From Longivirga aurantiaca (GTDB taxonomy: Bacteria > Actinomycetota > Actinomycetes > S36-B12 > CAIYMF01): a DNA stretch of 32,000 nucleotides. Both the position numbers and the translations under genes were made by a program. The DNA is taken from assembly GCF_042660085.1 (NCBI RefSeq), contig NZ_JBHSTI010000058.1:1-32000 (forward strand). Reading direction: 5' to 3'. Position 1 is the stretch's first letter; the number at the start of each line of letters is the position of its first letter. The notes under the pieces were generated by a model that was not told the origin of the DNA, did no database searches, and saw only the letters and a list, made by a program, of their open reading frames with translations. Shown here piece by piece: positions 2,536 to 15,711 of this stretch.

Positions 2536-3879
2536 CTACAGGTGGTAGGCGTACTCGCGGAACTCCCAGTCGGTGACGAACCGCGAGAAGCGCTCGACCT
2601 CGTTGCGCTTGTACGTCAGGAACGAGTTCACGAAGAACTCGCCGAGCACCTCGGCCAGCGCGGTGTCGGCCTCGAGCGCGTCGAGCGCCTCGGGCAGCGA
2701 CTGCGGCAGCATCGGTGCGCTCTCGGGGTCGTAGCCGTAGCCCTCGAGCGGCGCGGCGGGCTCGAGCGTGTCGCGCACGCCGAGGTAGATCGCCGCGCTG
2801 ACGGCGGCCATGGCGAGGTACGGGTTCGCCGTCGCGTCGCCGAGGCGCACCTCCATGCGGGCAGCACCCCCGCGCTCCGGCGGGATGCGGACCATCGCGC
2901 TGCGGTTGTCCAGGCCCCAGTCGATGAGCCAGGGGGCGAGGGTGTCGGGCCCGAACCGCTTGTACGAGTTGATGGTCGGGTTGAGGATCGCGGCGAGCGC
3001 CGGGGCGTGCGCGAGGACGCCGGCGATGGCGGCGCGACCGGTGGCCGAGAGACCGTCCACGCCGGCGGGGTCGCCGAACACGTTCGTGCCGTCGGCGTCG
3101 ACGAGCGAGATGTGCAGGTGGAAGCCGCTGCCGCCCTCCTCGTTGAACGGCTTCGCCATGAACGTCGCGAGCATGCCCTCGTGCCGAGCGATCTCCTGCA
3201 CAGCCGACTTCATGCGGAACGCGCGGTCCGCGGCGTCGAGCAGGTCGGAGTGGTTGAGGTTGATCTCGAACTGGCCGGGCGAGAACTCGTGGTTGGCCGC
3301 CGTCACCTGCAGCGAGGCGTCGCGCATGTTGCGCAGCATCGTGAGGAGCATGCCGCGGGGGTCGCCCTTGCGGCCGACGACGTACACGTTGCCGGGCTGG
3401 TCGGCGTACCGGCTCCAGCCCGTCGGGCTCGAGGAGTCGGGCTCGAGGAGGTAGAACTCGAGCTCCGGGCCGATCACCGCGCTGACGCCGAGCTCGCTCA
3501 GCTTGGCCGAGACGCGGCGGGCGACCTCGCGGGGCGACTCCTCGGCTGCGAGGCCGCCGAGGACGCTGGTGTCGGCGAGGCACCACGCGGCGCCCGGCTC
3601 CCACGGCAGGTTCGTGAGCGTGGTGAGGTCGGGGCGCGCGCTGATGTCGGGCAGGCCGCTCTCGATGCCGCCCTGCACCGGGACGACGTCGCCCATCGGG
3701 GTCGTGTGGTAGACCGCGCGGCAGAACGCGATGCCGTGGCCCATGACGCTCTGGAGCTCGTCGATGAGCACGTCGCGGCCGCGGTCGACACCGATGAGGT
3801 CCGGGTACGACACGCGGATCACGTCGATGCCCTTGGCGCGCAGGTCCTCGACCAGCGAGCTCACGTCAACCTGGTCCAT
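2536..3879 (-). CDS. Glutamine synthetase family protein (GlnA-like gamma-glutamyl-amine ligase class)
   Basis: Only the C-terminal 447 aa of listed ORF 2536..5082 look like a real protein. They begin MDQVDVSSLVEDLRAKGIDVIRVSYPDLIGV at the ATG ending at 3879. GS catalytic-domain motifs are present (NHEFSPGQFEINL, GSGFHLHISL, NSYKRF, DNRSAMVRIP). The upstream part of the ORF is antisense to the GATase and MarR genes. Confidence 0.85.
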   Translation of the reverse strand: MDQVDVSSLVEDLRAKGIDVIRVSYPDLIGVDRGRDVLIDELQSVMGHGIAFCRAVYHTTPMGDVVPVQGGIESGLPDISARPDLTTLTNLPWEPGAAWCLADTSVLGGLAAEESPREVARRVSAKLSELGVSAVIGPELEFYLLEPDSSSPTGWSRYADQPGNVYVVGRKGDPRGMLLTMLRNMRDASLQVTAANHEFSPGQFEINLNHSDLLDAADRAFRMKSAVQEIARHEGMLATFMAKPFNEEGGSGFHLHISLVDADGTNVFGDPAGVDGLSATGRAAIAGVLAHAPALAAILNPTINSYKRFGPDTLAPWLIDWGLDNRSAMVRIPPERGGAARMEVRLGDATANPYLAMAAVSAAIYLGVRDTLEPAAPLEGYGYDPESAPMLPQSLPEALDALEADTALAEVLGEFFVNSFLTYKRNEVERFSRFVTDWEFREYAYHL

Positions 3880-3914
3880 GCGGGGCTCTCCTGGTCTCGA
3901 GCGACGGGAACAGT

Positions 3915-3931
3915 CGTTCGGATGCGAACGA
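3915..3931. promoter_or_regulatory. Operator-like palindrome, site a1: CGTTCGGATGCGAACGA
   Basis: 7 of 8 palindromic pairs. Lies in the divergent spacer between the GS-like gene (start 3879) and the GATase gene (start 4049). Member of the six-site motif family. Confidence 0.5.
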
Positions 3932-4019
3932 TGGGGGAACGATAGTGGGAGCGATGCCCCGTGGGAAGAGGCTCGCGCAAACTCGCCCGCGCCCTTGCGG
4001 CACCGGGGGTCGGGCCATA

Positions 4020-4036
4020 TGTTCGGGCCCGAACGA
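4020..4036. promoter_or_regulatory. Operator-like palindrome, site a2: TGTTCGGGCCCGAACGA (core GTTCGGGCCCGAAC is a perfect 14-bp palindrome)
   Basis: Read directly from the sequence. It sits 13 nt upstream of the GTG at 4049 and overlaps the alternative ATG at 4019. Confidence 0.5.
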
Positions 4037-4048
4037 GAGGAGCCGCCC

Positions 4049-4762
4049 GTGCGCGCGCTGTTCATCCAGCAGGACCACGTCTCGCCCGTCGGGCCCGTGG
4101 GCGACCAGCTCGAGGCGCGCGGGTACGCCATCGAGGAGTTCGTCGTCGTCCCCGAGGACAGGTTCCACGAGCCCAATGTGGCAGCGGTGTTCCCGGACCC
4201 GCGCGACTTCGACGTGATCGTGCCGATGGGCGCCCCCTGGTCGGTGTACGACGAGCCCACGATCGGGGCCTGGATCCTCGAGGAGCTGACCTTCCTCCGG
4301 ACGGCGCACCAGGCGGGCGTGCCCGTGCTCGGCATCTGCTTCGGCGGCCAGGCGCTCGCGAGCGCGCTCGGCGGTGGCGTGGAGCGCGCGCCTGAGGCCG
4401 AGGTCGGCTGGTACGAGGTCGACAGCGCCGACCCGGCGCTGGTCGAGCCGGGGCCGTGGTTCCAGTGGCACCACGACCGGTGGATCTCGCCACCCGGATC
4501 GGAGGTCCTCGCGCGGACGCCGCGGGCCGAGCAGGCCTTCACCATCGGGCGCAGCATGGGCGTGCAGTTCCACCCCGAGCTCACGCCGTCCTCGCTCCAG
4601 GGGTGGTTCGACAACGGTGGGGCTGCGTACCTCGAGGCGCACGGCGAGGACGCCGACGCCCTCATGACGCGCACGGTGGCGACCGCGGCCGACGCGCAGG
4701 CCCGCAGCCGCCGGCTCGTGGACCGCTTCCTCGACCGGGTCGCCTCGCGGCCAGTGGGCTGA
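4049..4762 (+). CDS. Class I glutamine amidotransferase-like protein (GuaA/GATase1-type)
   Basis: Catalytic triad context VLGICFGGQALA (Cys) and GVQFHPE (His-Glu). The start is taken at GTG 4049, preceded by GAGAGGAG. An in-frame ATG at 4019 is possible. The listed ORF start at 3731 overlaps the GS-like gene and is rejected. Confidence 0.8.
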   Translation: MRALFIQQDHVSPVGPVGDQLEARGYAIEEFVVVPEDRFHEPNVAAVFPDPRDFDVIVPMGAPWSVYDEPTIGAWILEELTFLRTAHQAGVPVLGICFGGQALASALGGGVERAPEAEVGWYEVDSADPALVEPGPWFQWHHDRWISPPGSEVLARTPRAEQAFTIGRSMGVQFHPELTPSSLQGWFDNGGAAYLEAHGEDADALMTRTVATAADAQARSRRLVDRFLDRVASRPVG

Positions 4763-4768
4763 GCCGGG

Positions 4769-4797
4769 CGTGCGGACCCGAACGACTCTCGTAGACT
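4769..4797 (+). promoter_or_regulatory. Motif site b (CGTGCGGACCCGAACGA, 4769-4785) abutting a -10-like TAGACT (4792-4797), 7 nt before GTG 4805; candidate leaderless, autoregulated MarR promoter
   Basis: TAGACT fits the actinobacterial TANNNT -10 pattern. There is no Shine-Dalgarno sequence, and the 7-nt gap to the start codon is typical of leaderless transcripts. Confidence 0.4.
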
Positions 4798-4804
4798 CCG
4801 CTGC

Positions 4805-5479
4805 GTGGCTGCCGTGAGCTCGTCGGACAAGGCTGGGTCGCGGGCCGCCTCGGGCGCGCGCCGCGTCGCCGCGCACGTCGTCCACCCGGACGACTGCGAC
4901 CCGAGCACCTGCCCCTGCGACGACGCGGAGTGCTCGTTGAGCAAGTACGTGCGGGCCACGAATGCGGCGGCCGACCCCAGCCCCACCGGCGAGCACACGC
5001 TCGAGGCCACCGAGCAGGCGGTCGCCGAGCGGCTCAAGGGCCTCGAGGTCGACATGGGCGCGATGGCCGCCGTCTCGAACATCTACCGGGCCGCGAACGC
5101 CGTCCGCAACCACCTCGAGCGCACGGTGCTCGCCCCGCACGAGCTCACCTGGACCGGCTGGGTCGTGCTCTGGGTCGTGTGGATCTGGGGCGACATCGAG
5201 AGCCGGCACGTCGCCGCCGAGGCGGGCATCTCCAAGGGCACGCTGACCGGCGTCCAGAACACCCTCATCGCACGCGGGCTCGTGAAGCGGCGGGTGCACC
5301 CCGACGACGCGCGCCGCGTGCTGCTCTCGCTCTCGCCCAAGGGCCAGCGCCTGATGTCCGAGGTGTTCCCGAAGTTCAACGCCGAGGAGGCGTTCGTCTC
5401 GAGCCAGCTCGACGCCGCCGCCAAGCTCGCCATGGCCCGCTCCCTGCGCACCGTCGTCAAGCAGGCCGAGAACGCCTGA
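4805..5479 (+). CDS. MarR family transcriptional regulator with a roughly 60-aa N-terminal Cys/His-rich extension
   Basis: The C-terminal 150 aa are MarR-like (ESRHVAAEAGISKGTLTGVQNTLIARGLVKRRVHPDDARRVLLSLSPKGQRL). The N-terminal extension has near-uniform GC third positions, so it is very probably translated. Confidence 0.75.
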   Translation: MAAVSSSDKAGSRAASGARRVAAHVVHPDDCDPSTCPCDDAECSLSKYVRATNAAADPSPTGEHTLEATEQAVAERLKGLEVDMGAMAAVSNIYRAANAVRNHLERTVLAPHELTWTGWVVLWVVWIWGDIESRHVAAEAGISKGTLTGVQNTLIARGLVKRRVHPDDARRVLLSLSPKGQRLMSEVFPKFNAEEAFVSSQLDAAAKLAMARSLRTVVKQAENA

Positions 5480-5493
5480 CTCGCTCTGTGTGC

Positions 5494-5547
5494 GATGAAG
5501 GCGACCTTCATCCAATAGAGCCGAACAATTCCGGCCATCACGGCCGG
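5494..5547. terminator. Two small hairpins between convergent genes (GATGAAGG-cga-CCTTCATC and CCGGCC-atcac-GGCCGG)
   Basis: Read directly from the sequence, between the MarR stop (5479) and the PuuD-like stop (5551). Confidence 0.35.
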
Positions 5548-5550
5548 TGG

Positions 5551-6255
5551 TCAGCGGGCGGCGTCGACGAGGGCGCGGAAGAGGGCCAGCTGCGCGGGGT
5601 CGGTGCCGTACGTGTCCTCGGGGTGCCACTGGACGGCGAGGAACCAGCCCTTCGCGTCCGGGAGCACCGCACCCTCGACCGTGCCGTCGGCCGCGTGCGC
5701 CACGGGCACGAGGCCGTCTGCCAGGCGGCTGACCCGCTGGTGGTGGTAGCACGACGCAGCGACGGTCGGCCCGACGACGTCGGCGAGCACGCTGCCGGCG
5801 TCGACCGACACCTCGTGCACCACGTGCCGGTGCGGCTCGGCCATGTGCTGCTCGAGCTCGCCGCCGAGCGCGACGTTCACTACCTGCCATCCGCGGCAGA
5901 CCGCGAGCAGCGGCGTACCCGACTCGACCGCCCATCGCGCCACCGCGAGGTCGAAGGCGTCCTGCTCGACGTCGACGTCGTACACGTCGTCGCTCTGGAT
6001 CTCCTGCCCGTACGTCGACGGGTCGAGGTCGCCGCCGCCCGGGAGGAGCACGGCGTCCACGAACGACAGCCGCCGCGCGACGTCGTCCGCGCTCACCACG
6101 CCGTCCGGCGCCCAGGGGTGGATCGTCACGGGCTCGCCGCCGGCCAGCAGCACGGCCTCGGACAGCGCACGCGCGTTGGTGATCGCGCGGTGGCGGTGCG
6201 CGGACGCCGAGGACGAGAACCGAGCAGGGATCGCGACGATCGGTGTCCGCGACAT
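5551..6255 (-). CDS. Gamma-glutamyl-gamma-aminobutyrate hydrolase family protein (PuuD-like, peptidase C26 / GATase1 fold)
   Basis: LLAVCRGWQVVNVALGG (nucleophile Cys) and AVQWHPE. The start is chosen at the ATG ending at 6255 (MSRTPIVAIPARF) because GGAGG lies 9 nt upstream. The listed start at 6282 is an alternative. Confidence 0.8.
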   Translation of the reverse strand: MSRTPIVAIPARFSSSASAHRHRAITNARALSEAVLLAGGEPVTIHPWAPDGVVSADDVARRLSFVDAVLLPGGGDLDPSTYGQEIQSDDVYDVDVEQDAFDLAVARWAVESGTPLLAVCRGWQVVNVALGGELEQHMAEPHRHVVHEVSVDAGSVLADVVGPTVAASCYHHQRVSRLADGLVPVAHAADGTVEGAVLPDAKGWFLAVQWHPEDTYGTDPAQLALFRALVDAAR

Positions 6256-6283
6256 CTCTTGACGCCTCCGCAGCCGGGCCATA

Positions 6284-6300
6284 CGTTTGTGTCCGAACGA
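6284..6300. promoter_or_regulatory. Operator-like motif, site c: CGTTTGTGTCCGAACGA
   Basis: Lies in the 95-bp divergent spacer between the PuuD-like gene (start 6255) and the hpaE-like gene (start 6351). The right half is identical to the other sites and the left half is degenerate. Confidence 0.4.
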
Positions 6301-6350
6301 TAGCCCGGACCGGCTCGCTCGACCACCCCATCCTCGCGGAGGCCCGCTCC

Positions 6351-7823
6351 ATGACCAAGGCAGTCGTCGCCGGCGTCGAGATCGACACCCGGCACTGGAT
6401 CGGTGGCGAGCGCGTCGCGAGCGCGACGACGTTCGAGGACGTCTCGCCGCTCGACGGAACGGTCATCGCCGAGGTGAGCCGGGGAGGCCAGGCCGAGGTC
6501 GACGCCGCGGTCGCCGCGGCCAAGGCCGCGTTCCCCGCCTGGGCCGCGCTTCCGGTCGCGGAGCGCTCGGCCATCCTGCTGAAGGTCGCCGAGGGCATCG
6601 AGGCGCACATCGAGGACCTCGCGCAGGTCGAGACGCGCGACAACGGCTCGCTGCTGCGCTCGCACCGCCGCGGCGTCATGCCGCGCGTCGCGATGAACAT
6701 CCGCTTCTTCGCCGAGTACGCCATGACGGAGCTCGGCCACCCCGACTTCGACACCCGCGGCCACCGCAACCACGTGAGCTGGGACCCGGCCGGCGTCACC
6801 GCGATCGTCACCCCGTGGAACGCGCCGCTGATGCTCGCCACCTGGCGCATCGGCCCCGCGCTCGCGGCGGGCAACACCGTGGTGGCCAAGCCCCCGGAGT
6901 GGGCGCCGCTGACCGCGTCGCTCTTCGCCGACATCGCGCACGAGGCCGGGCTCCCCGCCGGCGTCTTCAACGTGGTGCAGGGGCTCGGTACGGAGGCAGG
7001 TGCGCCGCTCGTCGCGCATCCCGACGTACGCCGGGTCTGCTTCACCGGATCGGTGCCGACGTCGATCAAGATCGGCGAGTCGGCGGCGCGCAACGTGACG
7101 CCGGTGAGCTTCGAGCTCGGCGGCAAGTCGCCGCTGCTGGTCTTCGACGACGCCGACCTCGACCTCGCGGTCGATCTCGCGGTGGAGCAGTTCGACAACT
7201 CCGGCCAGGTCTGCCTCGCCGCCGTCCGCCTCCTCGTGCAGGACGGCATCTATGACGAGTTCCGCACGCGGTTCCTCGAGCGCGCTGCGCAGGTGACGCA
7301 GGGCGACAGCCGCGAGGAGTCGTCCGACATCGGTCCGCTGGTGAGCCGGACGCACTTCGAGCGCGTCGACGGCTTCGTGAAGCGCGCGGTCGCCGACGGC
7401 GCCCAGGTGATCCTCGGCGGCGAGCCGAACCACGAGCTCAACAATGCGACCGGCGGATTCTTCTACAAGCCGACGGTGTTCGAGGGCGTGGACAGCTCGA
7501 TGGAGATCACCTGCCAGGAGGTCTTCGGCCCGGTGCTGACGCTGCAGCGGTTCTCCACGGAGGAGGACGGAGTACGCATGGCCAACGACACCGAGTTCGG
7601 CCTCGCGGCCACGCTCGTGACGGGAAGCCAGGAGCGTGCCGAGCGAGTGTCGTCCCGGCTGCGGGCAGGCACGGTGTGGATCAACTGCTTCTTCGTCCGC
7701 GACCTCTCCGCCCCGTTCGGCGGCAGCGGCCGGTCGGGGATCGGTCGCGAGGGCGGCATCTGGTCGTTCGACTTCTACTGCGACGTCAAGAACTCCGTGT
7801 TCGCCCCGAAGGGATGGAACTGA
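6351..7823 (+). CDS. hpaE: NAD-dependent aldehyde dehydrogenase, 5-carboxymethyl-2-hydroxymuconate semialdehyde dehydrogenase-like
   Basis: 490 aa starting at MTKAVVAG, with GGAGG 9 nt upstream. ALDH motifs FELGGKSP and the catalytic Cys context GQVCLA are present. The C-terminus VRDLSAPFGGSGRSGIGREGGIWSFDFYCDVKNSVF resembles, from memory, E. coli HpaE. The gene lies immediately upstream of hpaD-like and hpaG-like genes. Confidence 0.8.
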   Translation: MTKAVVAGVEIDTRHWIGGERVASATTFEDVSPLDGTVIAEVSRGGQAEVDAAVAAAKAAFPAWAALPVAERSAILLKVAEGIEAHIEDLAQVETRDNGSLLRSHRRGVMPRVAMNIRFFAEYAMTELGHPDFDTRGHRNHVSWDPAGVTAIVTPWNAPLMLATWRIGPALAAGNTVVAKPPEWAPLTASLFADIAHEAGLPAGVFNVVQGLGTEAGAPLVAHPDVRRVCFTGSVPTSIKIGESAARNVTPVSFELGGKSPLLVFDDADLDLAVDLAVEQFDNSGQVCLAAVRLLVQDGIYDEFRTRFLERAAQVTQGDSREESSDIGPLVSRTHFERVDGFVKRAVADGAQVILGGEPNHELNNATGGFFYKPTVFEGVDSSMEITCQEVFGPVLTLQRFSTEEDGVRMANDTEFGLAATLVTGSQERAERVSSRLRAGTVWINCFFVRDLSAPFGGSGRSGIGREGGIWSFDFYCDVKNSVFAPKGWN

Positions 7824-7824
7824 C

Positions 7825-8718
7825 ATGGGTGAGGTTGTCGGAGCGGGGCTGCTGTCCCACGTGCCCACGATCATGGCTCCGCTCGAGGAGCGGCTCGCGC
7901 TCAACGGCGGCAAGGAGATCTCGCTCGTCCCCGCCCTGCACCGGCTGCGCGCGGAGAAGTTCGAGCAGCTCGACTACGACACCGTGATCGTCCTCGACTC
8001 GCACTGGTTCACCACGGTCGAGTTCATCGTGACCTCGCAGGACCTCCGCGCAGGCCTGTTCACGGCCGAGGAGCTCCCGCGCGGAATGTGCCGCATCCCG
8101 TACGAGTGGAAGGGCGACCGCGAGCTCGCCGAGGCGATCGCGGCCGAGGGCGAGCCGGCCGGCACCTGGATCACCGCGATCGACGACCCGTACCTCCCGC
8201 TGTACTACCCGTCGATCAACCTCTGGTCGTACCTCGGCAAGGGCATGGACAAGCAGTGGATCTCGATCTCGGTCTGCCAGACCGGTGAGACCGACGACTT
8301 CCTGCGCGTCGGGCGCGCCATCCGCGCCGCGATTGAGAAGACCGACCGCAAGGTGATCATCATCGCGACCGGCTCGATGTCGCACACGTTCTACAAGCTC
8401 AAGGAGCTGCGCAAGCACGAGAGCAGCGACCCGTCGCACATCATCACCCAGAAGGCGCGCGACATGGATCACGAGCGCCTCGAGTGGTTCTTCGAGGGCC
8501 GTCACGACCGCGTCCTCGAGACGATGCCGGAGTTCCTCGCCGTGCGCCCGGAGGGCATGTTCGCCCACTACCTCATGATGGCTGCGGCGCTCGGTGAGGA
8601 CGACTTCAGCGCACCCGGGGTCCAGTACGGCGACTACGAGAACGCCATCGGCACCAGCCAGGTCCACGTGTGGTTCGACCGGCCCGAGGCCGGCTGGACC
8701 GCGCCCCGAACCACCTGA
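7825..8718 (+). CDS. hpaD: LigB-type (class III) extradiol dioxygenase, 3,4-dihydroxyphenylacetate 2,3-dioxygenase-like
   Basis: 297 aa. The ATG is 1 nt after the hpaE-like stop. The N-terminus MGEVVGAGLLSHVPTIM...DTVIVLDSHW and the later ATGSMSH match the layout of HpaD/HpcB as I recall it. Confidence 0.75.
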   Translation: MGEVVGAGLLSHVPTIMAPLEERLALNGGKEISLVPALHRLRAEKFEQLDYDTVIVLDSHWFTTVEFIVTSQDLRAGLFTAEELPRGMCRIPYEWKGDRELAEAIAAEGEPAGTWITAIDDPYLPLYYPSINLWSYLGKGMDKQWISISVCQTGETDDFLRVGRAIRAAIEKTDRKVIIIATGSMSHTFYKLKELRKHESSDPSHIITQKARDMDHERLEWFFEGRHDRVLETMPEFLAVRPEGMFAHYLMMAAALGEDDFSAPGVQYGDYENAIGTSQVHVWFDRPEAGWTAPRTT

Positions 8719-8809
8719 CCGACGTACGACGCGACGGCGCCCTCACCGGGGGCGCCGTCCGTGCATCCCGACGCACCACCCGCGCTGCCTGAGAACCCTG
8801 GGAGAGAAC

Positions 8810-9685
8810 GTGACCGAGTACCGCCGGATCCTGCTCGAGGGCAGCGCCGTCCAGGTCGTGCGCCACGGCGACACGCTCGTCGCCGCCGACGGCCGCGAGG
8901 TGGGGGTCGAGGATGCGATCCACCTGCCGCCGTCGGAGCCGACGAAGATCATCGCGGTGCACCTGAACTACGACAGCCGCACGCAGGAGTTCATGACCAA
9001 GCTGCCGCCGGCGCCGACGTACTTCCACAAGCCGATCACGGCGATCAACAGCCACAAGGGCGCCGTCGTGCGGCCCGAGGGCTGCCGCTGGCTCAACTAC
9101 GAGGGCGAGATCGTCATCGTCATCGGGCGCACCTGCCGCAACGTGTCGCCGGCCGAGGCGGGCGACTACATCGCCGGCTACACCGTCGGCAACGACTACG
9201 GCCTGCACGACTTCCGCGACACCGACGCAGGCTCGATGCTGCGCGTGAAGGGGTCCGACACCCTCGCGCCGGTGGGCCCGGGCCTCGTCACCGACTGGGA
9301 CTTCCGCGGCAAGCAGATCCGCACCCTCGTCAACGGCGCCGTCGTCCAGGACGACACGACCGACGGCATGGAGTGGGACATGAACTACCTCGTCGCCGAC
9401 CTCGCCCGCACGATCACGCTCGTGCCCGGCGATCTCATCTACTCCGGTACGCCGGCCAACTCGCGACCGGTCGTCCCCGGCGACGTCGTCGAGGTGGAGG
9501 TGGAGGGCCTCGGGAGGCTCACGAACCACATCGTCACCGGCCCGACCCCGATCCGCACCGACGTCGGCGCGCAGCCGACCGAGAGCGAGGAGGTCGTCTC
9601 CACGGCCCTCGGCGGCGACTGGGAGTTCCGCGGCATCCGCACCCCGTCCAAGGACCTCTACCCGAGCACCGTCCAGGAGAAGTAG
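8810..9685 (+). CDS. hpaG: Fumarylacetoacetate hydrolase family protein (HpaG/HpcE-like isomerase/decarboxylase)
   Basis: 291 aa from GTG 8810, with GGGAGAG just upstream. FAH-fold signature KIIAVHLNY...NYEGEIVIVIGR...GYTVGNDYGLHDF...GDLIYSGTP. The part of listed ORF 8594 upstream of 8810 overlaps hpaD in another frame. Confidence 0.8.
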   Translation: MTEYRRILLEGSAVQVVRHGDTLVAADGREVGVEDAIHLPPSEPTKIIAVHLNYDSRTQEFMTKLPPAPTYFHKPITAINSHKGAVVRPEGCRWLNYEGEIVIVIGRTCRNVSPAEAGDYIAGYTVGNDYGLHDFRDTDAGSMLRVKGSDTLAPVGPGLVTDWDFRGKQIRTLVNGAVVQDDTTDGMEWDMNYLVADLARTITLVPGDLIYSGTPANSRPVVPGDVVEVEVEGLGRLTNHIVTGPTPIRTDVGAQPTESEEVVSTALGGDWEFRGIRTPSKDLYPSTVQEK

Positions 9686-9708
9686 CCCCCGCAGCCCGCT
9701 GAAGGACG

Positions 9709-9770
9709 CGAGTTACTGCCCAAATGCACGCTGAACGACGCCGCTCAACGAGCATTTGGGCAGTAACTCG
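9709..9770. repeat. Perfect 19-bp inverted repeat, CGAGTTACTGCCCAAATGC - 24 nt - GCATTTGGGCAGTAACTCG; hairpin, terminator or operator
   Basis: Read directly from the sequence. It is AT-rich for this genome and fills most of the 106-bp gap between the hpaG-like and LLM genes. The RBS and ATG of the LLM gene follow directly. Confidence 0.6.
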
Positions 9771-9791
9771 AGGAAGAAGGGGTAGGGCGGG

Positions 9792-10727
9792 ATGGCGGAC
9801 GTGCGGTGGCTCATGGTGCTCACCGAGAACGAGGCGATCCTCGACCCGCGCGACCTCGGGGCGCTGGTCGACCTCGCGGCGACCGCCGGGGCGAACGGCG
9901 TCGACGGCGTCCAGGTCTCCGAGCACGTCGTGCTCGGGCGCGACTCAGGTGCTGCAGGCGAGATGCACAACCCGCGCGACTACGCCGCGCCCGGCAACCA
10001 GTCGCCGACGTACCCCTGGCCCAGCAGCATCGTGCTCATGTCGGCCATCGCGCAGGCGACGTCCAGCCTGCGCCTGGTCGCCGGCGCGATCATCGCCCCG
10101 CTGCGCCACCCGCTGCTGCTGGCCAAGGAGCTCGGCACCCTCGACCTGCTCTCCGAGGGGCGCCTCGTCGTGCTGCCGACGGTGAGCTGGTCGAAGGACG
10201 AGTACGCCGCCCTCGGGGTGCCCTTCGCCGAGCGCGGCCGGATCCTCGACGAGCAGCTCGAGGTGCTCGCGAAGTCGTGGGGCCCGTTCCCGATCAGCCA
10301 CGACGGACCGCGGTTCCCGTTCACCGACGTCTGGCTGGAGCCGGGCGCCCACTCGTCGGCGGGCCCGCCGTTCTGGTTCGGCGGCCAGGGGATGCCGCCG
10401 CACGTCGTACGCCGCATCGCGCGCTACGGCAGCGGCCTCAACCCCTTCGGCCGTCTCACCGACGCCGACATGGCAGCGCTCGCGACGGGTATGCGCGAGG
10501 TCGGACGCGACATCGCCGAGCTCGAGCTCGTCGGCGGCATCCAGGGCGCGTTCACCGGGCCGGACGACGTCGCCGACGTCGACGTCGCGCTCGCCGACCT
10601 GCCCCGCCAGCTCGAGCAGGGCTTCACCACGATCTGCTTCAAGCCGTCGATGTTCGTCCGCAGCGTCGACGAGGTGCCTGCGCTCTGCCGCCACCTCGTC
10701 GCCGAGGGCGCCCGCCTCACGGCCTGA
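9792..10727 (+). CDS. LLM-class (luciferase-like) F420-dependent oxidoreductase
   Basis: 311 aa. Typical LLM/TIGR03619-like sequence (RLVAGAIIAPLRHPLLLAKELGTLDLLSEGRLVVLPTVSWSKDEY...FWFGG). Confidence 0.75.
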   Translation: MADVRWLMVLTENEAILDPRDLGALVDLAATAGANGVDGVQVSEHVVLGRDSGAAGEMHNPRDYAAPGNQSPTYPWPSSIVLMSAIAQATSSLRLVAGAIIAPLRHPLLLAKELGTLDLLSEGRLVVLPTVSWSKDEYAALGVPFAERGRILDEQLEVLAKSWGPFPISHDGPRFPFTDVWLEPGAHSSAGPPFWFGGQGMPPHVVRRIARYGSGLNPFGRLTDADMAALATGMREVGRDIAELELVGGIQGAFTGPDDVADVDVALADLPRQLEQGFTTICFKPSMFVRSVDEVPALCRHLVAEGARLTA

Positions 10728-10763: not shown

Positions 10764-13400
10764 TCAGCCGGTGTTCTGCAGCCCGGCGGCCGAAGCGTTC
10801 ACCGCGAGCAGGAGCACGCTGCGCCACGGCGTGCTCTCGCCGTCGGTCCGCACATGTGTCAGGGCGCGCAGCTCCAGCCGCGACAGAGCGTCGACGAAGG
10901 GCGCCCGAGCGGTCACGGTCGCGGCCAGGACCCGCTTGCGCTCCAGCAGCTCGGACTGCCCCATCACGTCGAGCACCAGGGAACGGGTGAGGTCCATCTC
11001 GGCCAGGATCTGCTCGGTGATGTCGCTGCGACCTCCGAGGCTGAGGAACAGCGAGGCGAGCATGCGGTTGCTCTTCGCCAGGCTCATCTCGGCGACGTCG
11101 AGCAGCGCGGCCATCAGCGGCCACTCACGGTAGGCGCGCTGCAGGAGCTCGATGTCCCCCACAGCCGACAGGCCCGACCCGATGCCGTACCAGCCCGGAA
11201 GGTTCGCCCGCGTCTGGCTCCAGGCGAAGACCCACGGGATGGCCCGCAGGTCCGACAGCGACCGACCGGACTCGGCGCCGCTGCGCCGCACGGGGCGGGA
11301 TCCGAGCCGCAGCTCGCCGATCTCCTCCAGCGGGCTGGCGTCGGCCAGGACGTCGGCGAAGCCGGGAGTCTCGACCAGCCGTCGGTACTCCTCGCGGGAC
11401 GCCCGCTCCACCGTGGCAGCGAGGTCGGCGTACCGCTGGGCGGCCGAGGCGTTGCGCTCGGCCACGGCGGCGGTGTCCGCCAGCAGCACCGCCGTCGTCA
11501 TCCGCTCGAGGTGGCGCTGGGCCACCGTCGTGTCCCCGTAGCGGGCGAAGATCACCTCGCCCTGCTCGGTGACCTTCAGCCGGCCGTCGACCGACCCCGG
11601 GGGCTGCGCCGTCACCGCGCGGTGGAGCGGCCCGCCGCCGCGTCCCAGCGAGCCGCCCCGACCGTGGAACAGCGTCAGCCCGACCGCATGGCGCCCTGCC
11701 CACGCCACCAGTCGGCTCTGCGCCTCGGACAGCGCGATCGTCGCCGCAGCAGGTCCGACATCCTTGGCGGAGTCGGAGTAGCCGAGCATGACCTCGACGG
11801 CTCGACCGGTGCCGGCGAGCCAGTCCTGGGTCGATCGGAGCGGCAGCCACCCGTCGAGGACCGCGGTGGCCCCGTGCAGGTCCTCACCGGTCTCGAACAG
11901 CGGGACGACGTCGAGCCGCAACGGACGGTCGCCCACCGCGAGCCGCGCCAGCGCGCGCACCGCGACCAGGTGCGCCGACGTCTGGCTGAACGAGACGACG
12001 TACCGGCCGCATGACCGCTGACCCCACCGGCTCTGCAGCCACTCCAGCACGCGCAGCGTGTCGAGCACCTCGGCCGCACGGTCCGAGCGGGCCACGACGC
12101 CCTCCGGCCAGCCGTCGGTGGCCAGCCCGTCGAGGAACGCCTCGTCGTCCGCCGCGGCCGCGGCGTCGTGCACGCCAGGCAGCTGGCCGATGAGCTCGAT
12201 GAGGGCCTCTCGGTGGATCGCCGAGTGCTGCCGCACCTCGAGCTCGGCCAGGTGGAAGCCGAACGTCTCCACGACCCAGATGACGTGCTGCAGCTCCCCG
12301 TTCGCGGCCCGCGCGGCACCCGCCTGCTGCAGCGACTCCTGCACGAGCCGCAGGTCGTCGAGCAGCTGCTCGGGGCCGGTGTAGGAGTGCTCGGTGAGGC
12401 CGGCGCGGGTGGCACGGATGCGCTCGGCCATGACGAGGAGCTTCTGACGGTGGGGCTCCCCAGGGCTGGCCAGCCGGATCTGCGACATGCGGTCGGGCAT
12501 GCCCACCGCGTCCCGTGCCAGCGACTCCTGCAGCGCCCGGGAGGGCGCGGTGTCCGACTCGTCCTCGGTCAGGGTGCGTCCCACGCGTTCCACCGCGTCG
12601 AGCAGGGCCGCGAGCGCGTGCTCCGCCTGCAGCGCCATCGCCTGACGGGTGACATCGGCGGTCACGTAGGGGTTGCCGTCGCGGTCGCCACCGACCCAGG
12701 ACCCGAACCGGACGAAGGCCGGGACCGGTGTCGGGATGGCGCCGCTGCGCTCGCCCACCAGCGCCACCTCCGTCGCGCGGTACAGCCGCGGAACGGCGCG
12801 GACGAGCGTCTGGTCGAACACCGTGAGGACCGTGCGGACCTCGTCCAACGGGCCGGGCCGTGTCGTGCGCAAGGAGGACGTCCGCTGCAGCGTCTCGATC
12901 TCCTCGAGCAGGCGACGTCGGGCCACCCATCGCTCGGCCGCACCCACGCGTGGGTCGTCGTGCCGTGCCAGCTGGTCCGCCACCCGCCGCACCGCCGTCG
13001 CGACTGCACGGCGTCGTGCCTCCGTCGGGTGGGCGGTGAGGACGGGGTGGATGCGCAGACGGCCCAGGACCTCCTGCGTGCCCTCCGCCGTCGCCGACAC
13101 GACGGCGGGCCACAGCTCGTCGCCGAAGTCGGCGTCAGGCGCCGCCGGCTGCTCGTGCTGGATGGCGCGGGCACGCTCGCGCTCGTCGGCCAGGTTGGAC
13201 AGGTGCAGGCGCACCGCGAGCGCGCGGGCGAGACTGCCGGAATCCTCCGGCCCGAGCGCGTCGATGGCGGTCTCCGCCGCCGCGGGGTCCGCGGTGATCT
13301 GCTCGAGAAGCAGGGCGATGTCCGCGGCGCCGGACTCGCGCAGGACCTGGTCGTGTAGCGTCGACAGCAGGTGCAGGTCGGCTGCCAGCAGCTCGGCCAC
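10764..13400 (-). CDS. ppc: Phosphoenolpyruvate carboxylase
   Basis: 878 aa. PEPC motifs VLTAHPTE and GYSDSAKD, the FHGRGGSLGRGGGP loop and the invariant C-terminal QNTG. GTG start with GGGAGG 6 nt upstream. Confidence 0.95.
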   Translation of the reverse strand: MAELLAADLHLLSTLHDQVLRESGAADIALLLEQITADPAAAETAIDALGPEDSGSLARALAVRLHLSNLADERERARAIQHEQPAAPDADFGDELWPAVVSATAEGTQEVLGRLRIHPVLTAHPTEARRRAVATAVRRVADQLARHDDPRVGAAERWVARRRLLEEIETLQRTSSLRTTRPGPLDEVRTVLTVFDQTLVRAVPRLYRATEVALVGERSGAIPTPVPAFVRFGSWVGGDRDGNPYVTADVTRQAMALQAEHALAALLDAVERVGRTLTEDESDTAPSRALQESLARDAVGMPDRMSQIRLASPGEPHRQKLLVMAERIRATRAGLTEHSYTGPEQLLDDLRLVQESLQQAGAARAANGELQHVIWVVETFGFHLAELEVRQHSAIHREALIELIGQLPGVHDAAAAADDEAFLDGLATDGWPEGVVARSDRAAEVLDTLRVLEWLQSRWGQRSCGRYVVSFSQTSAHLVAVRALARLAVGDRPLRLDVVPLFETGEDLHGATAVLDGWLPLRSTQDWLAGTGRAVEVMLGYSDSAKDVGPAAATIALSEAQSRLVAWAGRHAVGLTLFHGRGGSLGRGGGPLHRAVTAQPPGSVDGRLKVTEQGEVIFARYGDTTVAQRHLERMTTAVLLADTAAVAERNASAAQRYADLAATVERASREEYRRLVETPGFADVLADASPLEEIGELRLGSRPVRRSGAESGRSLSDLRAIPWVFAWSQTRANLPGWYGIGSGLSAVGDIELLQRAYREWPLMAALLDVAEMSLAKSNRMLASLFLSLGGRSDITEQILAEMDLTRSLVLDVMGQSELLERKRVLAATVTARAPFVDALSRLELRALTHVRTDGESTPWRSVLLLAVNASAAGLQNTG

Positions 13401-13553: not shown

Positions 13554-15080
13554 TCAGCTGACGAGGTCGGCGATCGCGTCCTCGTTCTCGTCCGTCAGGC
13601 GGAGCTTGCCCACCAGCAGGCCGAGGGCGAACATCGCGAACGGCGTCAGCACGAGGATCCAGCCGGTGGCGTTGAGGCCCCACGGCGTCACGGTCGGGTC
13701 GACCCCCTCCGCGACCGTGCCCGCGAGCAGGCCGAAGCGCGAGGCCAGCAGCCACATGCCCACGGTCAGGCCGATGATCGAGAGCAGCGGAGCGATGACC
13801 GATGCCCACACCCCGACGTCTCCACGATGGCGGGAGAAGAACGCCACGACCGCGAGCGACACGAGGATCTCGACGAAGACGATGGCGAGCACCGCAAGGC
13901 CGGAGAACCAGTAGAAGAGGTTGAGGATCGGGTCGAGAGCAGCCACCCAGAAGATGACGATCACGACCAGGGAGATCACCGAGGTGACCAGGGTGCCGGC
14001 CCAGGGGGCGCCGCGGCCGTTCACACGGTCGAGCGAGGTCGGCAGAACACCGGAGCGGCCCATGGCGTAGAAGTAGCGCGCGGCGGAGTTCTGGAACGCC
14101 AGCAGGCCCGCGAACAGCGACGAGATGACCAGCCAGCTCATGAGGTCGACGATCCAGGTGCCGACGTACTGCTCGGCCACCGCGAACAGGACGCCTGCCG
14201 GATTGGCGAGCGGCACGCCCTCGACCGTGGAGAGCTCGACGGTCCGGTCGATCACGGTCGAGGCCCCGAGGCCGGTGACGACGGCGAACGCGGTGAAGCC
14301 GAACACGATGGTGATGGTGATGACCGCCAGGTACGTCGCCCGCGGCACCGTGCGGTGCGGGTCCTTGGCCTCCTCGCCGTAGATGGCGGTGGCCTCGAAG
14401 CCGATGTAGGAGGCGAAGGCGAAGGCGAGCGCGATGCCCGCGGTGCTCGCAAGCCCTCCGGCGAAGATGTTGGCCGGCGCGAACGAGGCGCCGAGGTCGA
14501 TGCCCTCGGGCTTGTCGGAGGAGAAGAAGACGGCGAAGCCGGTGACGACCAGCGACAGGAGCTCGAGGGACATCAGGACGCCGAGGAGCTTGGCACCGAC
14601 GTCGACCGAGAGTGCTGAGAGGCCGAGCACGAGGGCCCAGGCGATGAGCGTCCAGGCGTACCACGGCAGGTCGATGCCGAACTTCGCCTTCATCTCGCCT
14701 GACACCAGGCCGCCGAAGAACCCGAAGATCGCGAGCTGGACGGCGAGATATGCGACCAGCGACACGAACGCCGAGCCGACGCCGGGGATGATCCCGAGGC
14801 CCCGCCCGACGTAGGCGAAGAAGGCCCCGACGTTGGTCACGCGGCTCGCCATAGCGGCGTAGCCGACGCTGAACAGCAGCAGGACGAGGCCGACGACGAC
14901 GTAGGCGCCGGGGGCCGCGGCACCGTTGCCGAGGACGATGGCGACCGGGACGGCGCCGGTCATGCCGACGAGCGGTGCGGCTGCGGCGACGACGAAGAAC
15001 ACGATGCCGAGGACGCCGAGGCGTCCGTGGTGCAGCGCGGTCTCCGGGGTCTCCTGCGGCGGGGGCTGGAGCTGGGTCAT
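13554..15080 (-). CDS. APC superfamily amino acid/amine permease
   Basis: 508 aa, about 12 TM helices. The N-terminus GVLGIVFFVVAAAAPLVGMTG is typical of the APC family. GAGGAGAG RBS before the ATG. Confidence 0.9.
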   Translation of the reverse strand: MTQLQPPPQETPETALHHGRLGVLGIVFFVVAAAAPLVGMTGAVPVAIVLGNGAAAPGAYVVVGLVLLLFSVGYAAMASRVTNVGAFFAYVGRGLGIIPGVGSAFVSLVAYLAVQLAIFGFFGGLVSGEMKAKFGIDLPWYAWTLIAWALVLGLSALSVDVGAKLLGVLMSLELLSLVVTGFAVFFSSDKPEGIDLGASFAPANIFAGGLASTAGIALAFAFASYIGFEATAIYGEEAKDPHRTVPRATYLAVITITIVFGFTAFAVVTGLGASTVIDRTVELSTVEGVPLANPAGVLFAVAEQYVGTWIVDLMSWLVISSLFAGLLAFQNSAARYFYAMGRSGVLPTSLDRVNGRGAPWAGTLVTSVISLVVIVIFWVAALDPILNLFYWFSGLAVLAIVFVEILVSLAVVAFFSRHRGDVGVWASVIAPLLSIIGLTVGMWLLASRFGLLAGTVAEGVDPTVTPWGLNATGWILVLTPFAMFALGLLVGKLRLTDENEDAIADLVS

Positions 15081-15122: not shown

Positions 15123-15139
15123 CGTTCGGATCCGAATGA
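15123..15139. promoter_or_regulatory. Operator-like palindrome, site d: CGTTCGGATCCGAATGA (flanked by two CGGATCCG palindromes at 15117-15124 and 15127-15134)
   Basis: 43 to 59 nt upstream of the permease ATG (15080, minus). 15 of 17 positions match site a1. Confidence 0.5.
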
Positions 15140-15192: not shown

Positions 15193-15216
15193 TGTCCGGG
15201 TGCGAACGACTCTCGT
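15193..15216. promoter_or_regulatory. Motif site e: TGTCCGGGTGCGAACGA, plus extension; the 14-mer CGAACGACTCTCGT is identical to 4779-4792
   Basis: Read directly from the sequence, in the 230-bp non-coding region upstream of the permease gene. Confidence 0.4.
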
Positions 15217-15310: not shown

Positions 15311-15637
15311 TCAGGTGCGGCGGGGCGCGTCTGCAGAGGCGAAGAGCGCGAGCAGCTCGCCGACCTCGTGGTCGGCCTCGGCCGGGTGCCGGAACCGCCC
15401 CGCCGGGTGCAGCTCGTAGGTGTTGCGGCGTCCGACCCGGGTGCGGGTCACGAAGCCGGCCTCCTCGAGGTCGCGCACGATCGCCTGGGCGGCGCGCTCG
15501 GTGATCTGGGCGGCGTCGGCGAGGTCGCGCAGCCGTGCGTCGGGGTCGCGCGCGATGAGCAGCAGGACGCGCGCGTGGTTGGTGAGCAGGGTCCAGGAGC
15601 GGGTCGGCGACTCGGAGGGCGGCTGCACGGCGCCCAT
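15311..15637 (-). CDS. Small winged-helix (ArsR/MarR-like) transcriptional regulator
   Basis: 108 aa from the ATG ending at 15637. HTH segment LRDLADAAQITERAAQAIVRDLEEAGFVTRTRVGRRNTYEL. The listed start at 15691 is a TTG inside the operator palindrome and is less likely. Confidence 0.7.
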   Translation of the reverse strand: MGAVQPPSESPTRSWTLLTNHARVLLLIARDPDARLRDLADAAQITERAAQAIVRDLEEAGFVTRTRVGRRNTYELHPAGRFRHPAEADHEVGELLALFASADAPRRT

Positions 15638-15676
15638 TGTGGTCCGTCCATGGGCCACGGCGGAACCGCGACTCGC

Positions 15677-15704
15677 TAGACAGGAAGTCAACTTCCTGTA
15701 TTAT
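15677..15704 (+). promoter_or_regulatory. Candidate dab promoter (-35 TAGACA 15677-15682, -10 TATTAT 15699-15704) with a perfect 9+2+9 palindrome ACAGGAAGT-CA-ACTTCCTGT (15680-15699) filling the spacer
   Basis: Read directly from the sequence. 16-nt spacer. The -10 ends 7 nt before ATG 15712 and there is no Shine-Dalgarno sequence, which suggests a leaderless mRNA repressed at the palindrome. Confidence 0.5.
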
Positions 15705-15711
15705 TCTTCGC

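Follow-up and report, generated by a model that had tools for sequence, protein, structure and literature searches.

A putative regulon of Longivirga aurantiaca that joins genes for gamma-glutamylation and extradiol ring cleavage, with a predicted role in aromatic amine catabolism

We analysed 32,000 nucleotides of the Longivirga aurantiaca genome (assembly GCF_042660085.1, contig NZ_JBHSTI010000058.1, positions 1-32,000, hereafter the window; genome size 3.67 Mb, 96% complete), in which genes for gamma-glutamylation stand side by side with genes for aromatic ring cleavage. The gene set combines the gamma-glutamyl amine pathways of the Puu, Ipu and aniline types with meta-cleavage. With moderate confidence, we interpret it as a regulon under the control of a MarR-family regulator that would catabolise an aromatic amine in the form of its gamma-glutamyl amide, the most likely substrate being an arylethylamine such as tyramine or dopamine. 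This interpretation is based on the gene families, catalytic residues, synteny, phyletic coupling and shared operator that we observed. No description of this gene set or route was found in the open-access literature.

Gene picks in the window, which has a G+C content of ~72%, combined third-position GC with Pfam and NCBIfam models, and the NCBIfam comparisons were judged against the NCBI curated equivalog cut-offs (Table 1). The gamma-glutamylation genes encode a ligase that resembles glutamine synthetase (the GS-like ligase), a class I amidotransferase-like hydrolase (GAT) and a PuuD-like hydrolase of the C26 type (C26). The ring-cleavage operon encodes an aldehyde dehydrogenase (ALDH), a LigB-type dioxygenase (LigB) and an FAA-hydrolase-family enzyme (FAH), and is followed by an LLM-class oxidoreductase (LLM). 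All genes named in an initial annotation of this DNA were present and its outer coordinates, 2536-10727, were exact, with the MarR gene absent from its list.

The gamma-glutamylation and ring-cleavage genes are coupled, and their adjacency is not due to chance. Conservation of the entire block extends over the genus and to another genus of its order. Among 80 loci anchored on LigB relatives in named assemblies, many of them incomplete, FAH was found in 75, ALDH in 73, MarR in 55, the GS-like ligase in 50, a cytochrome P450 in 47, C26 in 46, GAT in 39, an acetoacetate decarboxylase (ADC)-family gene in 35, a ferredoxin reductase (FdR) in 33, LLM in 29 and an APC-family permease in 26, with the gene order shuffled from locus to locus. 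Carriers include Rhodococcus rhodnii, Streptomyces spiroverticillatus, Kitasatospora, Embleya, Nocardioides, Phosphoribacter and lake lineages of the acI type, the last represented by metagenome-assembled genomes (MAGs). In an evenly drawn sample of 201 genomes from the class, related members of which are non-independent samples, LigB orthologues occurred in 16 genomes and orthologues from the ligase clade also in 16; 15 genomes were common to both sets and 184 had neither. Each of the two exceptions sits at the end of a contig in a fragmented assembly. The proposal of the initial annotation that both halves serve one aromatic-amine pathway is thus supported by the synteny, the phyletic profiles and the operator.

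That operator is a palindrome with the consensus cGTTyG-N4-CrAACg, which is carried by the promoters of every unit in the window. The initial annotation had suspected a shared motif, and its core, GTTYG-N4-CGAAC, was indeed found at positions 3916, 4021 and 6285, three sites where 0.1 were expected, and is conserved in other genera. The strict 16-mer has five sites in the 3.67-Mb genome, and a reversed-pattern control gave none. Two of the five lie in the window, and the others lie directly before the P450 gene on contig C3, at the start of a second P450 gene on contig C51 and before a gene for formate-tetrahydrofolate ligase. Of 114 motif sites in the 80 loci from other genomes, 108 fell between -250 and +30 of the starts of cluster genes, intervals that make up 13% of the sequence. 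These sites precede the genes for the ligase, GAT, ALDH/C26, P450, ADC and the APC permease, and never those for LigB, FAH or FdR. The equivalent of the site at 6284-6299 is kept in many genera, and eight of the 26 loci with an APC permease orthologue have the motif upstream of it; the permease of the window is probably the uptake component of the same regulon. The operator is real, conserved across genera, and widens the regulon beyond 2536-10727. A MarR domain and a promoter-sited palindrome are both present in the window, and the MarR protein (best NCBIfam model HpaR, with 52 bits where the cut-off is 121) would be the candidate repressor acting through the palindrome.

Two of the strict sites outside the window deserve a separate remark. 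The site at contig C8:1191138-1191153 (L114:7139-7154) lies 28 nucleotides upstream of the formate-tetrahydrofolate ligase gene, and could tie the handling of one-carbon units (e.g. from demethylation) to the regulon or could be due to chance. The second P450, on contig C51 (L115:1187-2404), shares ~33% identity with the cluster P450, carries the operator at its start (2385-2400) and is divergent from a gene for an ArsR-family regulator; P450s of this type recur in several related loci.

The GS-like ligase keeps the metal, ATP and glutamate residues of glutamine synthetase in full. The catalytic residues E129, E131, E212, E220, H269, H271, R321, R339, R344, E357 and R359 are all retained, and the ammonium site is altered by the changes D50C, S53P, Y179V, N264G and E327L. 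Across the ligase clade C50, G264 and hydrophobic residues at 179 and 327 recur, with residue 53 variable. Kept catalytic residues combined with a replaced ammonium site are the pattern of amine ligases, and the protein is by its sequence a GS-like gamma-glutamyl-amine ligase in the general sense. It does not belong to PuuA, scoring 268 bits against the PuuA model (GGputSyn, NF045547) with its cut-off of 650, and it also lies below the cut-offs of the GlnA and GlnT models. In a tree calculated with MAFFT and FastTree the LigB-linked ligases formed one clade with a support of 1.0, which excluded the other GS-family paralogues of the genome. The initial annotation had proposed placing the ligase among known clades including the GlnA2-4 enzymes; it stands apart from E. 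coli PuuA, IpuC of Paenarthrobacter aurescens TC1, the aniline ligase AdoQ of Sphingobium YBL2, GlnT and GlnA, in a tree that had PuuA as its sole polyamine ligase and was built without references for Streptomyces GlnA2-4 or the ethanolamine ligases. Within this tree, the clustering with a polyamine ligase that the initial annotation had named as a refutation was not seen.

The whole genome has eight GS-family genes, which suggests that several separate gamma-glutamylation pathways are present in it; among the eight are two tandem pairs, both on contig C2, which are similar to a plasmid pair of Rhodococcus pyridinivorans. We also noted that the 3' end of the GS-like gene (2556-2579, minus strand) and the FAH gene (9285-9308) share a 24-nucleotide stretch at 96% identity. 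Both copies encode VTDW(E/D)FR, and a second similar motif lies in FAH at 9603-9635. This similarity is probably the product of chance and codon bias.

Both hydrolases retain the nucleophile cysteine and the histidine. GAT shares 33% identity with the amidotransferase-like protein encoded in the aniline dioxygenase cluster of Sphingobium YBL2, and its GICFG and HPE motifs are intact. In aniline systems the TdnT-type amidotransferase-like protein hydrolyses surplus gamma-glutamylanilide (PMC11335346). C26 and E. coli PuuD share 27% identity, and both the CRG nucleophile and the WHPE histidine are retained in C26. Its score against the PuuD model NF008471 was 60 bits, below the cut-off of 266, and it is still a full match to Peptidase_C26. 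In three relatives whose gene order was read, a second ALDH is found beside or near the PuuD-like gene. The best model of this second ALDH is PuuC, with 506-560 bits, and second ALDHs of similar identity occur in about nine of the 80 loci.

In the ring-cleavage operon, the ALDH had HpaE (TIGR02299) as its best NCBIfam model, at 518 bits below the cut-off of 638, followed by 2-hydroxymuconic semialdehyde dehydrogenase with 461 bits and PuuC with 349 bits. The best model of LigB was HpaD_Fe (TIGR02298), at 129.5 bits below its cut-off of 316, and its best solved structures were 8IQ8, a homoprotocatechuate dioxygenase (68 bits), and AmnB (49 bits). H12, H60, H187 and E243 of LigB fall in alignment on the equivalent histidines and glutamate of 8IQ8, and H60 and E243 are invariant among eight orthologues. 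We take H12, H60 and E243 to be the expected Fe(II) ligands and H187 to be the catalytic histidine of the class III family; with this 2-His-1-carboxylate set and catalytic histidine, the protein is by its residues a LigB-type class III extradiol dioxygenase. FAH scored 194 bits against the HpaG C-terminal model (cut-off 276), a generic FAA-hydrolase model scoring higher. It has one domain, and the full-length model PRK15203 gave 160 bits against a cut-off of 811, so that it is not a two-domain HpaG/HpcE protein. Turning to LLM, the match to TIGR03619 reached 161 bits with the cut-off at 167, and a CofH/FbiC gene is present in the genome, i.e. F420 biosynthesis is encoded.

The initial annotation had noted that the window holds no hydroxylase, hydratase or aldolase. 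This is correct, and genes of the oxygenation and aldolase types lie instead on contig C3 of the same genome, behind a copy of the operator. In the closest relative, genes of the C3 type are found immediately to the left of the MarR-DoxX-GS block. HpaI had no match in the 96% complete genome, and the only HpaH matches were below the cut-off and elsewhere, on contig C8, so that a complete Hpa pathway was not found.

The ADC-family protein on contig C3 has MppR as its best NCBIfam model. It matched MppR with 151-168 bits and the structures 4ZBO and 6EEJ, which are deposited as acetoacetate decarboxylase and which we take to be Sbi00515, with 136-150 bits. The lysine of its conserved PK motif, presumably the Schiff-base lysine, aligns with that of MppR. 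Enzymes of the MppR/Sbi00515 type act on 2-oxo acids as aldolase-dehydratases. Orthology to Sbi00515 itself was ruled out at these scores, MppR being slightly higher. In Rhodococcus and Streptomyces, the ALDH-LigB-FAH operon is headed by the ADC gene.

We also considered the VanA-like Rieske-domain protein on contig C3 as a hydroxylase and dropped it. It has an invariant CXH...CXXC in place of CXH...CXXH, also in its orthologues L097:816-1883 and L079:1473-2516, and two histidines characteristic of the mononuclear iron motif of VanA-type enzymes are missing. Because the canonical motifs are lacking, it is not counted as a hydroxylase; instead of an oxygenase, it may be a redox partner.

A group II pyridoxal phosphate-dependent decarboxylase is found in about 14-23 of the 80 loci. 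NCBIfam gave it no assignment, and its best relative among solved structures is a 3,4-dihydroxyphenylalanine (DOPA) decarboxylase. The linkage of this DOPA-decarboxylase-like enzyme is suggestive of an amine substrate. A different decarboxylase occurs in some close relatives (L014:12926-14392 in the genus relative G022, and L030), where FAH is followed by an alpha/beta hydrolase, a MarR regulator, a decarboxylase and a dehydrogenase of the HIBADH type. We rejected this second decarboxylase as an aromatic amino acid type, since it is a true glutamate decarboxylase (641 bits, cut-off 380). The glutamate decarboxylase and HIBADH genes may be a link to the handling of glutamate and gamma-aminobutyric acid (GABA).

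Table 1. Features of the regulon in the window and on contig C3 of the same genome. Positions refer to the window unless a contig is named; bit scores are Pfam matches.
Feature	Position	Strand	Remarks
GS-like gamma-glutamyl-amine ligase	2536-3879	-	447 amino acids; Gln-synt_C 343 bits
Operator CGTTCGGATGCGAACG	3915-3930		GS side of the GS/GAT divergent region; among the 5 strict 16-mer sites of the genome
Operator TGTTCGGGCCCGAACG	4020-4035		Overlaps GAT promoter-like block 3994-4039; repeat family D8
Class I amidotransferase-like hydrolase (GAT), TdnT/AtdA2 type	4049-4762	+	237 amino acids; GATase 44 bits
Operator-like site CGTGCGGACCCGAACG	4769-4784		Between GAT and MarR; 1 mismatch
MarR-family regulator	4805 or 4949 (start) to 5479	+	MarR 37 bits
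PuuD-like gamma-glutamyl hydrolase (C26)	5551-6255	-	234 amino acids; alternative start 6282; Peptidase_C26 156 bits
Operator CGTTTGTGTCCGAACG	6284-6299		C26/ALDH divergent region, inside promoter-like block 6258-6303
Ring-fission semialdehyde dehydrogenase-like ALDH	6351-7823	+	490 amino acids; Aldedh 528 bits
LigB-type (class III) extradiol dioxygenase	7825-8718	+	297 amino acids; LigB (PF02900) 83 bits
FAA-hydrolase-family enzyme (FAH), single domain	8810-9685	+	291 amino acids; FAA_hydrolase 176 bits
Strong hairpin between FAH and LLM	9709-9770	+	29-nucleotide arms, 90% complementary
F420-dependent LLM-class oxidoreductase	9792-10727	+	311 amino acids; Bac_luciferase 112 bits
APC-family permease	13554-15080	-	AA_permease 79 bits
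Operator-like site CGTTCGGATCCGAATG	15123-15138		43 nucleotides upstream of the APC permease start
Second, weaker operator-like site	15193-15208		Upstream of the APC permease; 2 mismatches
Ferredoxin reductase (FdR)	C3 1297-2517		
Operator	C3 2573		Follows a promoter-like block
P450	C3 2630-3892		62% identical to the cluster P450 of relatives
PDR-type reductase	C3 about 3905-4869		
VanA-like Rieske-domain protein	C3 4875-5936		
ADC-family gene	C3 6135-6935		Only one in the genome

In the route that we infer, which covers the substrate, the order of the steps and every enzymatic activity, the amine would be imported by the APC permease and converted by the GS-like ligase, at the expense of ATP and glutamate, into its N-gamma-glutamyl amide. 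The P450 and reductase encoded on contig C3 behind the same operator would then hydroxylate the ring to a catechol, and the LigB-type dioxygenase would open this ring by extradiol cleavage with the amine still masked. Free DOPA-type ring-fission products undergo cyclisation, and with the mask in place this attack of the free amine on the ring-fission aldehyde would be prevented. Next, the HpaE-like ALDH would oxidise the semialdehyde, the HpaG-like FAH would isomerise and/or decarboxylate the product, and the MppR-like ADC enzyme would act as a hydratase-aldolase to give pyruvate and a gamma-glutamyl-omega-aminoaldehyde. This aldehyde would be oxidised by an ALDH, after which the PuuD-like C26 would free glutamate and an amino acid, GABA in the case of a dopamine-type substrate. 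Surplus gamma-glutamyl-arylamide would be hydrolysed by GAT, as in aniline systems, and MarR would repress all of the units via the palindrome.

By analogy, if homoprotocatechuate chemistry is applied to a catechol whose side chain is 2-(gamma-glutamylamino)ethyl, the expected aldehyde is gamma-glutamyl-4-aminobutanal. The PuuC/PuuD-like pair seen in relatives would be explained, because gamma-glutamyl-4-aminobutanal is the substrate of PuuC. A more specific scheme, which we regard as possible and on balance doubtful, is that the glutamyl residue, beyond activating the amine, acts as a protecting group kept through ring cleavage, so that amines of the tyramine and dopamine type are mineralised without an amine oxidase and join the Puu pathway at gamma-glutamyl-4-aminobutanal, which would pass via gamma-glutamyl-GABA to glutamate and GABA, the MppR-like ADC enzyme replacing HpaH and HpaI.

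Several observations weigh against catabolism of a masked aromatic amine. Every match to an Hpa or Puu model in the window is below the equivalog cut-off, and because the specific-model scores are all in this range the window proteins are relatives, not orthologues, of the Hpa and Puu enzymes. LigB also resembles a 2-aminophenol dioxygenase (AmnB). The linked P450 resembles the CYP125/124/268 group, the solved members of which hydroxylate aliphatic termini, and the Rieske protein with its degenerate motifs does not count as a hydroxylase. Neither an orthologue of the linked decarboxylase nor one of the PuuC-like second ALDH was found in this genome, the Rhodococcus rhodnii locus has no hydrolase within 20 kb, and LLM has no place in the proposed route.

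These observations leave room for other explanations. The same regulon might act on an aromatic amino acid, tyrosine or L-DOPA, in which case the alpha-amino group would be gamma-glutamylated, the ring opened, and the resulting gamma-glutamyl-glutamate split by C26 into two glutamates. A permease from the amino acid/APC family, the true glutamate decarboxylase after FAH in close relatives, and the fact that most loci, like this genome, have no linked decarboxylase are all consistent with such a substrate, and on paper the chemistry would work equally well. We nevertheless think it unlikely, since the DOPA-decarboxylase-like enzyme linked in roughly a quarter of the loci points to amines; a weaker argument is that the changed residues at the ammonium site of the ligase are small or hydrophobic and offer no obvious partner for a carboxylate. 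If instead the amide were hydroxylated and deglutamylated, and the amine then converted to free 3,4-dihydroxyphenylacetate (homoprotocatechuate) for cleavage by true HpaD, HpaE and HpaG enzymes, as the initial annotation had it, then an amine oxidase or aminotransferase would be needed to make the arylacetate, and neither is recurrent among the neighbours in the 80 loci. HpaE, HpaD_Fe, the HpaG C-terminal model and HpaR are the best named models, and a homoprotocatechuate dioxygenase is the best solved structure for LigB, but LigB, ALDH and FAH are all below the respective cut-offs, the same holds for the HpaH matches, and HpaI was not found. Such funnelling into the free acid also has no need of a PuuC-like/PuuD-like pair or of the ADC enzyme; the PuuC-like ALDH next to the PuuD-like hydrolase in relatives and the ADC-headed operon fit a still-glutamylated catechol better, and we consider the free-acid version improbable.

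The catabolism of an arylamine such as aniline or aminophenol would follow a logic known from the aniline and 1-naphthylamine systems (PMC11335346), with the gamma-glutamylanilide hydroxylated by the P450, hydrolysed to 2-aminophenol and cleaved by an AmnB-like enzyme. GAT is of the aniline-system type, residue 327 of the ligase is leucine as in the aniline ligase, and LigB does match AmnB. We give this explanation little weight, since the ligase falls outside the aniline clade and no alpha/beta (two-component) Rieske dioxygenase was found in the window or among the recurrent neighbours. Among these neighbours there was also no recurrent second LigB-family gene (AmnA-like) or deaminase-like family, neither of which was searched for by name; moreover, the decarboxylase and the PuuC/PuuD-like genes would be left unexplained, and the gene set occurs in acI lineages of lakes, a setting in which anilines are not likely to serve as nutrients. 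A cluster for the biosynthesis of a specialised metabolite, made for instance from a ring-opened DOPA derivative, could be argued from the MppR model of the ADC protein, and MppR-like ADC enzymes, P450s and DOPA-cleaving dioxygenases do occur in actinomycete biosynthetic clusters. It appears very improbable here, given that no nonribosomal peptide synthetase, polyketide synthase or other scaffold genes recur among the neighbours in the 80 loci, that an uptake permease, a repressor, an ALDH and an FAH are typical of catabolism, and that the gene set is present in MAGs of the acI lineage, whose members are small-genome, nutrient-scavenging bacteria. Finally, the window genes are arranged in separate divergent transcription units and the genome has eight GS-family paralogues, as might be expected if a polyamine or ethanolamine gamma-glutamylation module simply lay next to an unrelated aromatic meta-cleavage operon. 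If this were the case, then the sharing of 15 of 16 carriers on each side among the 201 genomes, the synteny in distant genera with shuffled order, the operator common to both halves and the ligase clade that tracks LigB would not be expected; this explanation is strongly disfavoured, with hardly any probability left to it.

Catabolism of a gamma-glutamylated aromatic amine would place the regulon among several known systems without making it identical to any. Like the HpaD/HpcB-HpaE-HpaG set of the E. coli type, it has a LigB-type Fe(II) dioxygenase, a semialdehyde dehydrogenase and an isomerase/decarboxylase-like protein of the FAA-hydrolase fold in one operon, together with a MarR/HpaR-like regulator. 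In contrast to that set, none of the three enzymes reaches its cut-off, FAH is built of one domain instead of two, the HpaH/HpaI pair gives way to a linked MppR-like ADC enzyme, the operon is tied to gamma-glutamylation genes and a P450, and the substrate is probably an amide-bearing catechol and not an arylacetate. With the E. coli Puu pathway (PuuA, PuuB, PuuC, PuuD, PuuR and PuuP) it would share the activation of an amine by a GS-like ligase and the freeing of glutamate by a C26 hydrolase at the end, and it has in common a dedicated permease and a candidate repressor as well as, in relatives, a PuuC-like ALDH by the C26 hydrolase. It differs in that the ligase lies outside the PuuA clade, no PuuB oxidase is found here, and the carbon skeleton would be processed by P450 hydroxylation and ring cleavage instead of amine oxidation.

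The aniline and 1-naphthylamine systems (AtdA1-A5, TdnQTA1A2B and NpaA1-A5; PMC11335346) likewise use a GS-like ligase on an aromatic amine, an amidotransferase-like hydrolase of the same type as GAT, and oxygenation of the gamma-glutamyl amide. The present regulon is not an AtdA1-A5/TdnQTA1A2B set, its ligase being in a different clade and its oxygenase a P450 in place of a two-component Rieske dioxygenase, and unlike those systems it includes a meta-cleavage operon and a PuuD-type hydrolase. The Ipu isopropylamine pathway of Pseudomonas sp. KIE171 and of plasmid pTC1 of Paenarthrobacter aurescens TC1 has a ligase, a P450 with ferredoxin reductase, gamma-glutamyl hydrolases and an ALDH in one unit, and its P450 acts on the masked amine. 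The Ipu/Pip-type combination of ligase, P450, reductase and hydrolase as a unit is also seen here, with a P450 in 47 of the 80 loci and with the P450 and FdR on contig C3 in L. aurantiaca. IpuC is nevertheless 36% identical to the ligase and from another clade, the Ipu substrates are small alkylamines, and a ring-cleavage dioxygenase, an FAH and an ADC-family enzyme are all absent from the Ipu cluster. In contrast to the AmnBA 2-aminophenol 1,6-dioxygenase pathway, each cluster has one LigB-family gene, with no second LigB-family gene and no deaminase-like family recurring among the neighbours, where neither was searched for by name. The ADC protein resembles the MppR/Sbi00515 branch of the acetoacetate decarboxylase-like superfamily in its model and structure matches and its aligned PK lysine, and it is an orthologue of neither; unlike MppR and Sbi00515, its gene stands at the head of an operon for ring fission, a setting that would call for a hydratase-aldolase.

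Some further features of the window were noted. The hairpin between FAH and LLM has a folding energy of -50.9 kcal/mol (z = -7) and no U-tract. Its outer arms are kept in two related genomes (G018 and G021), the variable inner parts there being self-complementary by eye, with the pairs uncounted, and Rfam gave no match anywhere in the window, the hairpin included. For the LLM gene it might serve in processing or stability, or as an attenuator. A divergent MarR/DoxX pair at 1499-2480, to the left of the ligase, is kept in the closest relatives only (5 of the 80 loci) and is probably outside the core set. Further along the window, DabB-like (proton-antiporter) and DabA domains share one open frame of 1402 amino acids at 15637-19845, which suggests a fused inorganic carbon transporter, and a gene for phosphoenolpyruvate carboxylase lies nearby (10764-13400, minus strand).

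To our knowledge, the known routes for biogenic aromatic amines begin with an amine oxidase or a transaminase. If our interpretation is correct, then the regulon would represent an undescribed bacterial way to consume such amines, one in which masking by a gamma-glutamyl group, oxidation of the masked amine by a P450 and meta-cleavage are joined under common control, and it would give a physiological role to the GS-like ligase clade, the LigB dioxygenase clade and the MppR-like ADC enzyme. Since cultured carriers exist, among them Rhodococcus rhodnii NRRL B-16535, Streptomyces spiroverticillatus JCM 4609, Embleya sp. NBC_00896 and Kitasatospora sp. NPDC096077, each step is open to direct test. 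The gene set is carried by lake Actinobacteria of the acI and related lineages as well as by soil actinomycetes, and the route, if true, therefore bears on the dissolved organic nitrogen that these organisms use.

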